From Spirochaetota bacterium (GTDB taxonomy: Bacteria; Spirochaetota; UBA4802; UBA5550): 64,000 bases of DNA. Under the pieces are notes generated by a model that saw nothing but the letters and a program-made list of their open reading frames with translations, made no database searches and was not told the DNA's origin. Location of the stretch: assembly GCA_040768125.1 (NCBI GenBank), contig JAXGNG010000001.1, positions 1,095,318 to 1,159,317 on the forward strand. Direction: 5' to 3'. Made by a program: the position numbers and the translations under genes. Positions 31,785-37,644 of the stretch are shown in pieces; the first letter of the stretch is position 1; each line of letters starts with the position of its first letter.

Positions 31785-32255
31785 TCAGTTAAGTGAAAAC
31801 GGCCCCATCCGCTCTTCAAGGGATCCGGGCAGTCCTTCCACGAAGGCGCGGATCTCGTCGCGGACCCGGCGGTAGTGGGCCAGGGCCTCCTCCTCCGTGG
31901 CCGCTCCCTTCGCGAGTTCCGGAGGGTCCTCGAATCCGACATGAACGACTTTCGTCTTCCCGGGGAAGACAGGGCAGGTTTCAGCGGCGCCGCCGCAGAG
32001 GGTGACCACATAGTCGAACTCCCGGCCGGCGAACTCTTCGACGCGGGTGGAGCGCTGGGCCGAGATGTCGATCCCGATCTCCGCCATGGCCGCAACGGCA
32101 CGGGGGTCGATCCCCTTCGGCGCCGTGCCCGCGGAATACGCTTCGATGGCACTTCCGCGGAGCGCCCGGGCCAGTCCCTCGGCCATCTGGCTCCGGCAGG
32201 AGTTGCCCGTGCAGAGAAAGAGTATCTTCATTTTTTCCGTCGATGTCATTGTCAT
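31785..32255 (-). CDS. arsC: Arsenate reductase ArsC, thioredoxin-coupled LMW-PTPase type
   Basis: CTGNSCRSQMAEG P-loop (Cys10 equivalent) plus CGGAAETCP (Cys82/Cys89 pair) as in Bacillus/Staphylococcus ArsC. Alternative starts at 32249 or 32231. Confidence 0.85.
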   Translation of the reverse strand: MTMTSTEKMKILFLCTGNSCRSQMAEGLARALRGSAIEAYSAGTAPKGIDPRAVAAMAEIGIDISAQRSTRVEEFAGREFDYVVTLCGGAAETCPVFPGKTKVVHVGFEDPPELAKGAATEEEALAHYRRVRDEIRAFVEGLPGSLEERMGPFSLN

Positions 32256-32366
32256 GCCCTTGTATCCGTTGTCGCGTTTTCTTAAAGGTTTCCCGGTACA
32301 CACCGGTTGTGTCGAGTTGTCTTCGTCGGATTTCGCGAATGTACGGGAACATTGTTCGCATGATGA

Positions 32367-32741
32367 TCAGAGCAACGCCTTCCTGTAGTGGCGGCGGATT
32401 TTCCCGTCAGCGGTGACGAGCGGCACGTCCTTCCCCCTGGCATGGGCCACGATCATCCGGTCAAAGGGATCGCGGGTCCATTTCTCCCCGATCGATGATG
32501 TAATGAGTTCCGAAAGGGAAATGTCGTGGATGCGCAGGCCGATCTCGTTTTCAAGCCCGGATACTATCTCACCGGAATTTTTTTTTATTTTCCCGATTTC
32601 ATGAAGATATTCCATCTCAAGCACGGCGACGGGGGAAATAAATATGTCGTTTGATTCCAGTGCCGCAGTGCCTTTTTTCGATAATCGCTCGACACTGCCG
32701 CTGTACAACCACACGGCGATATGGGTATCGATAAAGACCAT
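32367..32741 (-). CDS. vapC: Type II toxin VapC (PIN-domain ribonuclease)
   Basis: MVFIDTHIAVWL...LEMEY...DPFDRMIVAHA...LVTADGKI carries the four acidic PIN residues. Its ATG overlaps the antitoxin stop by 1 nt. AT-rich. Track start 32765 is over-extended. Confidence 0.8.
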   Translation of the reverse strand: MVFIDTHIAVWLYSGSVERLSKKGTAALESNDIFISPVAVLEMEYLHEIGKIKKNSGEIVSGLENEIGLRIHDISLSELITSSIGEKWTRDPFDRMIVAHARGKDVPLVTADGKIRRHYRKALL

Positions 32742-32743
32742 CA

Positions 32744-32974
32744 AAGGTTTTTTTCTCCTTCCCATTCCGCGGTCCAGTCGATGGAGACGATGGCTCCCGG
32801 ATCGCCCAGGATCACGTCACGCTTCCTGAGATTGGAGAGCTTTTTTTTCGGCTCACTGGAAACAATACGGATTATTTTTCCCTTTCTCTCGATTTCGATC
32901 GGGTTCCCGGTTTCAATCACCCTGTCAAGAAGGGCGTAGAGGTTTTTCCTGAACGATGTGGCGGAAATTTTCAT
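32744..32974 (-). CDS. Type II antitoxin, Phd/YefM family
   Basis: MKISATSFRKNLYALLDRVIETGNPIEIERKGKIIRIVS is the Phd/YefM fold signature. GGAGG RBS 9 nt upstream of ATG 32974; the track TTG at 33025 falls inside the promoter. Confidence 0.75.
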
Positions 32975-32994
32975 CACGTGAGGGCCTCCCCGGA

Positions 32995-35738: not shown

Positions 35739-35784
35739 CCCCTTGCGTTAATCACGTTTCGTTCCCACCGTCACGGGGGTGAAT

Positions 35785-36132
35785 TCAGTTGCTCTTCGCG
35801 CCGATGCCACAGCATCGCGCGATATCCATCTGCTTTTCCGCGCCGGTCCTGAGCACGGTCTCGACGCAGTTGATGAAGTCGAGAATGCAGGGACAGCAGA
35901 GGGAATAGTAGATGCTTGTGCCCCTCTTTTCGTCATGAACCAGCCCGGCGTTCTTCAGCACCGACAGGTGTTTCGACACGGTGGAGACGTCGGAGCCGAT
36001 CATTCCCGTCAGGTCGTTGACGCACCGCTCGCCCCGGTTCAGCTCCTCGATGATGAAGAGCCTGGCGGGGTGTCCCATGGCCTTGATGATATTTGCCCGC
36101 GCCTCGTACTGCGGGGGGAGTCCTTTTTTCAT
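35785..36132 (-). CDS. arsR: ArsR/SmtB-family metalloregulator (atypical metal site)
   Basis: HTH_20 core ...HPARLFIIEELNRGERCVNDLTGMIGSDVSTVSKHLSVLKNAGLV... The ELCVCDL site is reduced to ERCVNDL (single Cys), plus a C-terminal Cys cluster LCCPCILDFINC...CCG (AfArsR-like). AGGAGG RBS; starts 13 nt after the hgcB stop. Confidence 0.85.
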   Translation of the reverse strand: MKKGLPPQYEARANIIKAMGHPARLFIIEELNRGERCVNDLTGMIGSDVSTVSKHLSVLKNAGLVHDEKRGTSIYYSLCCPCILDFINCVETVLRTGAEKQMDIARCCGIGAKSN

Positions 36133-36145
36133 TGCGTTCCTCCTT

Positions 36146-36442
36146 TCAGCAGCACCCGGCGTCTCCGCCGCAGCCGCATGATTCGTTTCCCGTTATCATG
36201 CCGTTGATGATGGCCGTGGCGCATCCCACGCCGGATGTGACCGCGATGGCGCCGAAGTCGCAGTTCAGGGAGCAGGCGCCGCATTCCATGCAGAGGTCGC
36301 GGTCACGGATAGACGCCTTCCCGCCACTCATCTCGAAGACGCCATGGGGGCAGACCTCGACACAGCGGCCGCACCCGGTGCACCGTACCTCGTCGTAAGA
36401 CAGGGTTGCGACGTTTTTCAGGTATTTCACGGGAGCCCCCAT
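36146..36442 (-). CDS. hgcB: HgcB, 2x[4Fe-4S] ferredoxin of the mercury-methylation pair
   Basis: 98 aa; two CxxCxxCxxxCP motifs (CTGCGRCVEVCP, CMECGACSLNCD) and the diagnostic C-terminal vicinal cysteines ...GCGGDAGCC. Overlaps the hgcA 3' end by 16 nt. Confidence 0.8.
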   Translation of the reverse strand: MGAPVKYLKNVATLSYDEVRCTGCGRCVEVCPHGVFEMSGGKASIRDRDLCMECGACSLNCDFGAIAVTSGVGCATAIINGMITGNESCGCGGDAGCC

Positions 36443-37644
36443 GTCTGTAGTTTATGGAAAACAAGAAATATCAACGCGCCGATGGCCCCTGTGACATATA
36501 CGGGCAATGAGAGTTTCAGTTCCCGCCTCACCCCGGAGGGTCCCGTATAGGTGGAGGCGCCGGTGAACTGAAGGGCCAGGTATGATGACAGAAGGGGGAA
36601 GATGATAAGCGCCGAGATCCTGTACGTGAATGATTCGCCGCTCAGAGACGTGGCCAGGACAAGGGGCGCGATCGCCGCGGCCCCGACGAGCCACCCCTTG
36701 AGGGCGAAGGACCTGAAGGGGATGAAGGGGAGGAGGGCCGGGGTTACGATGGCGCCGGTCCCAATCGCCGTGAACAGAAATAGAATGTAGGCGCGGCCCT
36801 CGTTCCATGCGGCCGCGAAGAGTATTCCATGGGGCTGGAGGCCGAAGAATGCGAGGATCGCCAGTGAGGCGATGACCCCGTATTTCACCGATTGACGGAA
36901 CTCCATGGGCGTGAGGACCAGGCGGTCGGCGAGGCCGAACCGCACCCGGCGCATCGGGGGATCTGCGCGATAGCCGTTGTCCACGTAGGAGATGATGTCC
37001 CCGGCGTCAACCGGACCGAAATATACCTTGAATCCGGTCGCGCGCTTCACCTCTGACGCCCTGACGCCGGGGGCGCCGAGCTGGGGCACGATGATACGCC
37101 GGTGGGAGATCCGCTCCGCGAGCCGGACATCCCTGATGCGGTGTACCAGTTCCGCCGTGCCGAAGGTCCCCTTCCCCGCGGCGCACCATACGTTGATTCC
37201 CTTCGTGTCGAGGACCAGTATCCATGCGCTGATTGTGCCGAGGGCGCGCCGGAGAATGTCGAAGCTCAGCTTGTAGTTCGCCGAAACGAACACATCCGAC
37301 GTGGAGTCAGGATCGCCGAGGGCGTAGAGACCCGGAGAGACATCATACTTCATCCGGAAGGAACCGGTACGGGCGCGAATGTGTCCCCACCGGTCAGTGG
37401 CGGTCCACTCATGAGTGACCCTGCGGACACTATCACTCCCCGAGACAGCGTGCACGGGCCCGCGGCCCGGAGCAAGAAGGGCGCGCGCCGCCTCGTGGAG
37501 GGTCCCGGGGTCTGGTGAGGCGAGGCCGGTGGCCGGTGTCAGCGTTTTACCGGTGCTGGATGATAATAATGCTTGTCTCTGGCGTGACGGGTTCTGTTCC
37601 ATTTGATTCCGCTGTCGTTTCTTTGATATTTGGCTAATTAGCAA
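36427..37644 (-). CDS. hgcA: HgcA, corrinoid protein of the mercury-methylation pair (CFeSP-like domain + C-terminal TM domain)
   Basis: Diagnostic cap-helix motif GINVWCAAGKGTFG (N[V/I]WCA[A/G]GK); upstream GLYALGDPDSTSDVFVSANYKLSFDILRR matches HgcA; 4-5 C-terminal TM helices. Start uncertain: track uses TTG 37644; likely shorter, with ATG 37602 or GTG ~37455 as alternatives. Confidence 0.85.
   Translation of the reverse strand: MLISQISKKRQRNQMEQNPSRQRQALLSSSTGKTLTPATGLASPDPGTLHEAARALLAPGRGPVHAVSGSDSVRRVTHEWTATDRWGHIRARTGSFRMKYDVSPGLYALGDPDSTSDVFVSANYKLSFDILRRALGTISAWILVLDTKGINVWCAAGKGTFGTAELVHRIRDVRLAERISHRRIIVPQLGAPGVRASEVKRATGFKVYFGPVDAGDIISYVDNGYRADPPMRRVRFGLADRLVLTPMEFRQSVKYGVIASLAILAFFGLQPHGILFAAAWNEGRAYILFLFTAIGTGAIVTPALLPFIPFRSFALKGWLVGAAAIAPLVLATSLSGESFTYRISALIIFPLLSSYLALQFTGASTYTGPSGVRRELKLSLPVYVTGAIGALIFLVFHKLQTWGLP

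Follow-up and report, generated by a model that had tools for sequence, protein, structure and literature searches.

In Pseudodesulfovibrio mercurii ND132, transcription of the mercury-methylation genes hgcA and hgcB is controlled by ArsR2 and responds to arsenic (Goni-Urriza 2020; Gionfriddo 2023; bioRxiv 10.1101/2022.10.17.512643), and a second locus of that strain, ‘operon C’ (arsR5-arsP-arsE-DGC), is co-induced with hgcAB by arsenic. The accessible text of McDaniel et al. (2020, mSystems, Fig. 6) describes hgcAB of diverse phyla as flanked by acr3, arsC, arsR and arsM, and cites Gionfriddo 2020 for a downstream ArsR-like repressor gene and ArsB near hgcAB; the mercury-arsenic gene association is repeated in later surveys, such as Peterson et al. 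(2025, EST). Mercury biogeochemistry has yet to settle how hgcAB is regulated and what its native function is. Here we analysed an hgcAB locus in a stretch of 64,000 nucleotides (the window) from a Spirochaetota bacterium (contig JAXGNG010000001.1), in which hgcA, hgcB, arsR, an ArsP_1 permease gene, arsE, acr3, a phd/PIN toxin-antitoxin (TA) pair and arsC follow one another on the minus strand, as read from six-frame open reading frames and profile searches. We consider it likely that the genes from hgcA to acr3 form one operon, driven from an operator in front of hgcA and governed by its own ArsR, and that hgcAB were inserted between this operator and arsR.

Like arsR2-hgcA-hgcB of ND132, the locus groups the gene of an ArsR/SmtB regulator with hgcAB in one, here predicted, transcription unit. 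The ND132 regulator lies upstream of hgcA, carries a four-Cys motif (Cys47/49/86/88) and has no other ars gene adjacent, whereas the regulator described here lies downstream of hgcB, belongs to another sub-clade (C37, CCxC, C-terminal CC) and is followed by arsP-arsE-acr3-arsC. The likeness to operon C of ND132 is one of gene set; 72 stand-alone metagenomic operons share, in addition, the promoter/operator and a sister ArsR clade. Stand-alone arsR-arsP-arsE(-DGC) operons start with arsR, whereas in the window that control element is followed first by hgcAB and then by arsR.

An initial annotation of this DNA had set a downstream ArsR against the upstream ArsR of described methylators. This contrast does not hold, since a downstream ArsR-like repressor had already been published, as the accessible text of McDaniel et al. 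2020, citing Gionfriddo 2020, states. Because these papers and Gionfriddo 2023 had published it, hgcAB among ars genes with a downstream ArsR is not new in kind. The available portions of the McDaniel, Peterson and Gionfriddo 2020 texts describe flanking genes only, with no arsP-arsE-DGC-DsbD_2 module, shared operator or placement of hgcAB between operator and arsR. In the literature text searched, we found no conserved operator, relocation before hgcA, separate ArsR sub-clade or arsP-arsE-DGC-DsbD_2 partnership, although published figures may already draw some of these neighbourhoods. The value of the locus lies in the regulatory element and the candidate exporter, not in co-localisation itself. 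As a whole, the annotation was right about the gene string, and our analysis supports its operon-like nature and strongly suggests ArsR-type control; a response to As(III) is unproven, and the novelty of the downstream ArsR did not stand.

The control element in front of hgcA

Aligned DNA from upstream of hgcA in relatives reveals a unit of the form CTTGAC(A)-N10-ATTT(T/G)GC-TATATT-GCCAAAT, in which 17 nt separate a -35 hexamer from a -10 hexamer that forms the centre of a 7-6-7 palindrome. The left operator arm lies at a fixed 16 nt from where TTGAC begins, in the relatives and in stand-alone arsR operons. The palindrome occurs once in the window, at the hgcA promoter, and the operator lies upstream of hgcA in every relative with upstream sequence (L001, L008, L081-L089, L092-L094 and L096). 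In metagenome contigs, 63 of 72 stand-alone arsR-arsP-arsE loci have the TTGAC-operator unit upstream of arsR, at a distance of 25-110 nt; this is a 34-fold enrichment (3.64 sites per kb upstream of arsR versus 0.107 per kb in the rest of the same loci). The element is absent between hgcB and arsR in hgcAB-linked loci, and no second operator was found, at up to two mismatches, in the loci of the window, L082, L084, L086 and L088. Because the same element precedes arsR in the stand-alone operons, hgcAB appears to have been placed between an ArsR-type operator and arsR. A conserved ArsR-operon promoter/operator in front of hgcA strongly suggests the ArsR-type control of hgcAB that had first been proposed from the gene order, and the recurrent pairing of operator and ArsR argues for binding of this ArsR to the palindrome.

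In the operon that we propose, a sigma-70-type promoter (TTGACA, 17 nt, and a -10 hexamer inside ATTT(T/G)GC-N6-GCCAAAT) would drive an hgcA-hgcB-arsR-arsP-arsE-acr3 mRNA, to which arsC would be added by read-through across the inserted TA cassette. ArsR made from its own transcript would bind the palindrome and repress the operon (negative autoregulation) and would be released when a thiophilic ligand, most likely As(III) or a trivalent organoarsenical, occupies its cysteine cluster. The insertion of hgcAB between operator/promoter and arsR would have taken place in an ancestor of a Spirochaetota-related clade, and the recipient would have been the widespread arsR-arsP-arsE(-DGC-CxxC-DsbD_2)(-acr3-arsC) operon. 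Insertion behind the operator would thereby bring the methylation genes under the ArsR-type control of that operon, and as a result the corrinoid methyltransferase would be expressed only when an arsenite pump, an arsenate reductase and an organo-metal(loid) permease are expressed too; the bacterium, then, probably does not make its mercury-methylating enzyme without metalloid export pumps. The locus and its relatives suggest that, in one lineage, the control element of an efflux operon of organoarsenical type came to govern hgcAB expression. The defined 20-bp operator with its cognate ArsR sub-clade, and the recurrent partner permease ArsP_1, offer testable handles, and should arsenic prove to be the inducer, methylmercury production in these organisms would be under the direct control of arsenic exposure.

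The substrates that ArsP exports are trivalent methyl- and aryl-arsenicals. As with ArsM plus ArsP, in which a SAM-dependent arsenite methyltransferase is paired with an efflux permease for methylarsenite, and with arsP-arsR-arsC-acr3 of Campylobacter jejuni, a methylating enzyme or an ArsP_1 permease stands here under predicted ArsR control with acr3 and arsC; unlike in those systems, the methyltransferase is the corrinoid/ferredoxin pair HgcAB, with a 432-aa ArsP_1 protein as candidate exporter. The pairing of HgcAB with a permease may thus parallel the methylate-and-export logic of ArsM/ArsP, ArsP_1 being a candidate exporter of a methylated product (methylarsenite, methylmercury or other). 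A fuller version, in which ArsP_1, aided by ArsE, would be the dedicated exporter of the HgcAB product (methylmercury or a corrinoid-dependent methyl-arsenic) and the extra Cys pairs of ArsR would sense substrate or product, seems doubtful to us at present. If true, it would assign HgcAB a native function and name a candidate exporter of methylmercury for the first time.

Other features were considered in this upstream region. A selenocysteine extension of HgcA (Haft & Gwadz) was rejected, as the in-frame TGA at 37662-37660 belongs to the -35 hexamer and is preceded by no Cys. The N-terminal extension of HgcA (window 37603-37420) contains no cysteine; the HgcA N-terminus of relatives has a CC motif (GACCCG in L001, NCCAPP in L008, PCCPSCSC in L153), which Haft & Gwadz relate to CU/CC metal-binding extensions. 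A riboswitch or other RNA element upstream of hgcA was also rejected: an Rfam scan of the whole window returned no RNA element besides one tRNA gene, at 62692-62763 (+). In the Bacteroidales locus L066, a distinct but related palindrome (ATTTCGC-N6-GCGAAAT, 6420-6439) is positioned just upstream of arsP, followed by arsC-hgcA, and may be the equivalent operator of another ArsR lineage.

The hgcB-adjacent regulator and its inducer

Metagenome contigs were searched with an alignment of hgcB-adjacent ArsRs. All eight matches at 73% identity or above directly follow hgcB; the 72 matches at 50-71% identity lead stand-alone arsR-arsP-arsE(-acr3/arsC) operons, and hgcAB is nearby at one of these 72 loci. 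A neighbour-joining tree of 101 sequences groups the 17 hgcB-adjacent ArsRs in a single clade, next to the ArsRs that lead arsP/arsE operons. The window ArsR carries Cys37, 79, 80, 82, 89, 107 and 108. C37 is found in 100% of the hgcB-adjacent and 94% of the leader-type proteins, C82 in 100% of both, and C89 in 65% versus 100%. The sub-clade gained two cysteine pairs, C79 and C80 (100% each, versus 2% and 16% in the leader type) and C107 and C108 (94% each, versus 8% and 16%).

None of the known cysteine signatures compared assigns an effector to this protein. The ArsR2 motif of ND132 (CxC...CxC) is absent from the window ArsR, which lies downstream of hgcB; a CICGE...CYC motif is present in the upstream ArsRs of other Spirochaetota loci (L004, L005 and L040). 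A SqrR/BigR-like persulfide site, defined by Cys41 and Cys107, was rejected, as Cys41 of SqrR pairs with a non-cysteine in the 6o8k alignment, and the BigR NCBIfam model scores 40 bits on the window ArsR against a cut-off of 155. Since the canonical arsenic triad, the ArsR2 motif and the SqrR cysteine are all lacking, and solved relatives are distant, the effector is not assignable from sequence. The initial annotation had called this ArsR ‘As(III)-responsive’, which is unproven for a member of its own sub-clade that keeps one of the three canonical alpha-3 cysteines. It is only the context, namely acr3 and arsC in the string and arsenic induction in ND132, that favours arsenic as effector.

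Several points weigh against the operon model with an arsenic-type inducer. The R773-type alpha-3 triad (Cys32/Cys34/Cys37) is incomplete, with ERCVNDLT retaining the first cysteine only, and the nearest solved homologues, Rv0081, NmtR, SqrR and BigR, are non-arsenic sensors, although distant ones (E 1e-11 to 1e-9). In relatives, the string includes genes for rhodanese, TauE, Trx and DsbD, which would fit sulfur or thiol stress as well. Most relatives have TATATT as -10 hexamer, a better one than TAATTA in the window. Furthermore, hgcB or the 55-nt spacer between arsR and arsP may harbour an internal promoter, and the TA cassette's own strong promoter may uncouple arsC or alter its expression.

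These points bear first on an alternative in which the architecture is the same and the sensor responds to something other than arsenic: Hg(II), methylmercury, Cd/Zn, or thiol, persulfide or redox stress. The ArsP_1-ArsE-(DGC-CxxC-DsbD_2) genes would then be a general soft-metal/thiol module, with acr3-arsC as a later add-on. The absent triad and the gained cysteine pairs suit such a sensor, as do the persulfide sensors SqrR and BigR among the nearest solved relatives, the non-cysteine at the SqrR Cys41 position speaking against the latter. Likewise, L085, L087 and L008 have no acr3, and genes for rhodanese, TauE, Trx and VKOR/DsbA are found there in place of the module or added to it, but in several phyla acr3 and/or arsC lie at most 1.5 kb from hgcAB and on its strand. 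The ArsP_1 family includes SO_0444 Cu/Zn exporters and SaoE exporters. The arsenic role first given to the ArsP_1-ArsE module is overstated, as the module is not proven to be arsenic-specific. In ND132, however, As(III) and As(V) induce hgcAB as well as the arsR5-arsP-arsE-DGC operon. Taken together, we regard a non-arsenic sensor as unlikely, though a serious competitor.

Gene identities and proposed unity of the transcript

The initial annotation had placed hgcAB within a same-strand string of ars genes, and profile searches verified all of its gene calls (Table 1). Start codons were revised by comparison with relatives.

Table 1. Features of the hgcAB-ars locus, with positions in the window and the basis of each assignment
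Feature	Position	Strand	Basis
-35 hexamer TTGACA of hgcA promoter	37658..37663	-	sequence reading; conserved spacing
Palindromic ArsR-type operator ATTTTGC-TAATTA-GCCAAAT (predicted)	37628..37647	-	straddles -10 hexamer TAATTA 37640-37635
hgcA, corrinoid methyltransferase, 391 aa	36427..37602	-	NF040863, 392 bits vs cut-off 275
hgcB, 2x[4Fe-4S] ferredoxin, C-terminal CC	36146..36442	-	NF040864, 119 bits vs cut-off 99
arsR, ArsR/SmtB-family repressor, hgcB-adjacent sub-clade	35785..36132	-	PF01022, NF033788
ArsP_1-family permease, 432 aa, CSC motif	34431..35729	-	PF03773, 244 bits
ArsE / MTH895-type thioredoxin-like protein (CAKC)	34177..34416	-	TIGR00412, 110 bits vs cut-off 62; PF13192
Junction from loss of DGC, CxxC protein and DsbD_2	34165..34195	-	blastn vs L082; gene tables of relatives
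acr3, arsenite efflux permease, 361 aa	33079..34164	-	TIGR00832, 415 bits vs cut-off 283
Inserted phd/PIN toxin-antitoxin cassette, 852 bp	32236..33087	-	PF02604, PF01850; absent from L082
arsC, thioredoxin-coupled LMW-PTP-type arsenate reductase	31785..32255	-	PF01451

The translation of hgcA contains NVWCAAGK, which fits the cap-helix pattern N(V/I)WCA(A/G)GK of HgcA, and a hydrophobic C-terminal half, as expected from the C-terminal transmembrane domain of HgcA, and is 100% identical to P0001 (391 aa). Its start is probably ATG 37602; the maximal open reading frame reaches TTG 37644, inside the operator. HgcB, encoded directly downstream of hgcA and overlapping it, has the two CX2CX2CX3C cluster motifs, CTGCGRCVEVC and CMECGACSLNC, and a terminal GCC, and may start at GTG 36430, giving a GTGA overlap with the hgcA stop. 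By these profiles and motifs, HgcAB is a predicted Hg(II)-methylation pair. The ArsP_1 permease, for which relatives indicate a start at ATG 35729 and 432 aa, combines its PF03773 match with the CxC-containing motif AVCSCTV and scores under the SaoE and SO_0444 equivalog cut-offs. Relatives likewise place the start of acr3, the arsenite efflux permease gene of the string, at ATG 34164 (361 aa). The best NCBIfam match of ArsC is TIGR02691, at 135 bits under its cut-off of 174; the catalytic CX5R loop (CTGNSCRS) and a C-x6-C pair were found, and in relatives arsC directly follows acr3.

The spacers of 13, 46, 14 and 3 nt reported earlier are correct for the start codons then chosen. The hgcB-arsR spacer of 13 nt reads TGA-AAGGAGGAACGCA-ATG, and its AGGAGG lies directly next to the hgcB stop, which the initial annotation had it overlap. 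From arsR to the permease there are 46 nt to TTG and 55 nt to the revised ATG; 14 nt separate the permease from the Trx-like gene, and 3 nt (to TTG) or 12 nt (to the revised ATG) separate the latter from acr3. We rejected intrinsic terminators or structured spacers between the genes, as none were found beyond chance: terminator-like sites are not enriched (7 found versus 6.3 expected), and four folded spacers (arsR-arsP, arsP-arsE, acr3-TA and TA-arsC) have no unusual hairpins (z-scores 0.1-1.1). The tight spacers, the lack of terminator-like hairpins and the synteny kept in relatives uphold the proposal that the string is one operon-like unit, and the data fit a single transcript from hgcA through acr3, which we infer from this layout.

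Alternatively, hgcAB-arsR and arsP-arsE-acr3 could be separate units, the second read from a promoter, so far unrecognised, that lies within arsR or between arsR and arsP, and adjacency would then reflect a shared regulon and not one mRNA. The spacer in question, at 46-55 nt the longest of the string, is the most plausible site of an internal promoter, but a consensus scan found no promoter-like site in it and folding no terminator-like hairpin. Internal wiring before arsP does exist, because a second arsR precedes arsP in L008, L087, L092 and L096, in L008 with a second operator at 8040; the window, L082, L084, L086 and L088, however, have neither. This division into two units therefore appears improbable for the window, and we retain the single operon from hgcA through acr3.

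Relatives and other hgcAB loci

The order hgcA-hgcB-arsR, with an hgcB-arsR spacer of 11-13 nt, is kept in ten relatives, L082, L084, L085, L086, L087, L088 and L008 among them, whose HgcA proteins are 55-82% identical, and hgcAB-arsR adjacency is also seen in L001 and eight metagenome contigs (L089-L096). The absence of this synteny from related genomes, by which the initial annotation proposed that it could be refuted, was thus not observed. L082, L084, L088 and L086 show the usual continuation, with ArsP_1, Trx_3, DGC (PF08859), a 160-aa CxxC protein, DsbD_2, acr3 and arsC, L084 ending with its contig after DsbD_2. In L087 and L008, a second arsR precedes arsP and TauE, Trx or VKOR genes stand in place of acr3-arsC, and L085 has rhodanese-TauE-arsC. 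Additionally, L086 contains a gene for an MtrA-like protein (PF04208, corrinoid-binding methyltransferase subunit family) at 14852-15532, between acr3 and arsC, and a radical-SAM/SPASM gene at 15994-17097, after arsC.

In blastn comparisons, L082 shares 90-95% DNA identity and both flanks with the window. A segment of 1.67 kb with the DGC, CxxC and DsbD_2 genes (L082 13440-15110, between arsE and acr3) that is present in L082, L084, L086 and L088 is missing from the window, the loss being clean. Conversely, the suspicion that the toxin-antitoxin pair is an insertion was borne out, as its 852 bp are lacking in L082. Within the cassette, a Phd/YefM antitoxin gene (32974-32741) and a PIN toxin gene (32741-32367) share a stop/start overlap, ATGA, at 32741. 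Their promoter, TTGACA-17-TATATT at 33025-32997, is near-consensus (11 of 12 positions), and ACGTACG(T) inverted repeats flank it at about 33042-33035 and 33017-33010. Because the window has no DGC-CxxC-DsbD_2 genes and has an added TA cassette, we regard it as a derived, trimmed form of a conserved operon-like unit.

Beyond these relatives, the comparison across hgcAB-carrying genomes that had been suggested shows ars genes to be concentrated beside hgcAB. We took 80 hgcA loci, each from a species-representative genome, and located homologues of the window proteins around them by tblastn. Of these loci, 21 have one or more of arsP, arsE, acr3 and arsC within 10 kb, and 18 of the 21 within 1.5 kb. 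The density of ars structural genes was 11.9 per 100 kb at up to 1.5 kb from hgcAB versus 0.4-0.5 per 100 kb at 5-10 kb, and 38 of 40 such genes shared the hgcAB strand. The order is arsR-arsC-hgcAB-acr3 in Bacteroidales, arsR-hgcAB-acr3-arsC in a Bacillota metagenome-assembled genome (MAG) and hgcAB-arsC-acr3 in a Nitrospirota MAG; because gene order differs by phylum, the link between hgcAB and ars genes is recurrent and not one inherited block.

The larger module follows the same pattern. L153 has operator-arsR-arsP-arsE-CxxC-DsbD_2-hgcA-hgcB, and L060 and L066 (Bacteroidota) have arsE-arsR-...-DsbD_2-arsP-(arsC)-hgcA-hgcB-acr3; L082 and L153 have CxxC proteins with 33% identity (E = 2e-33). 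At least three different gene orders thus join the arsP-arsE-CxxC-DsbD_2 module to hgcAB, and such recurrence speaks for HgcAB and the permease module being functionally linked. That hgcAB came to lie by an ars operon through chance or hitch-hiking, with no regulatory or functional link, is very hard to credit: ars operons are common and mobile and the locus was recently remodelled by one deletion and one TA insertion, but the arrangement persists down to 55% HgcA identity with its 11-13 nt hgcB-arsR spacer, the operator precedes hgcA and not arsR, ars genes are about 25-fold denser beside hgcAB than 5-10 kb away and nearly all on its strand, and several gene orders tie hgcAB to the same module.

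The genes around the string were also surveyed. Divergent from hgcA lies a flavodiiron (flavorubredoxin/FprA-like) gene at 37851-39038 (+) (NF008887, 702 bits), the 248-nt intergenic region between them having been analysed on the hgcA side; the pairing recurs in L082, L085, L086 and L087 and hints at a link to O2/NO stress. Beyond it, the regions 39080-40399 (-) and 40730-44287 (+) encode a 227-aa membrane protein ending in CSCEACG with a CDF-like N-terminus, an MntP-type Mn exporter, so labelled from the Pfam match of the L082 orthologue, and a 1185-aa MMPL/RND-like transporter, in the same order as in L082. At the other end, a fusion of GNAT acetyltransferase and histone-deacetylase-family domains, assigned by Pfam matches on the L082 orthologue, occupies 30032-31765 (+) and is convergent with arsC. 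A GC-rich hairpin with a T-run at 31706-31724, at the end of this gene, may serve as terminator for both converging units.

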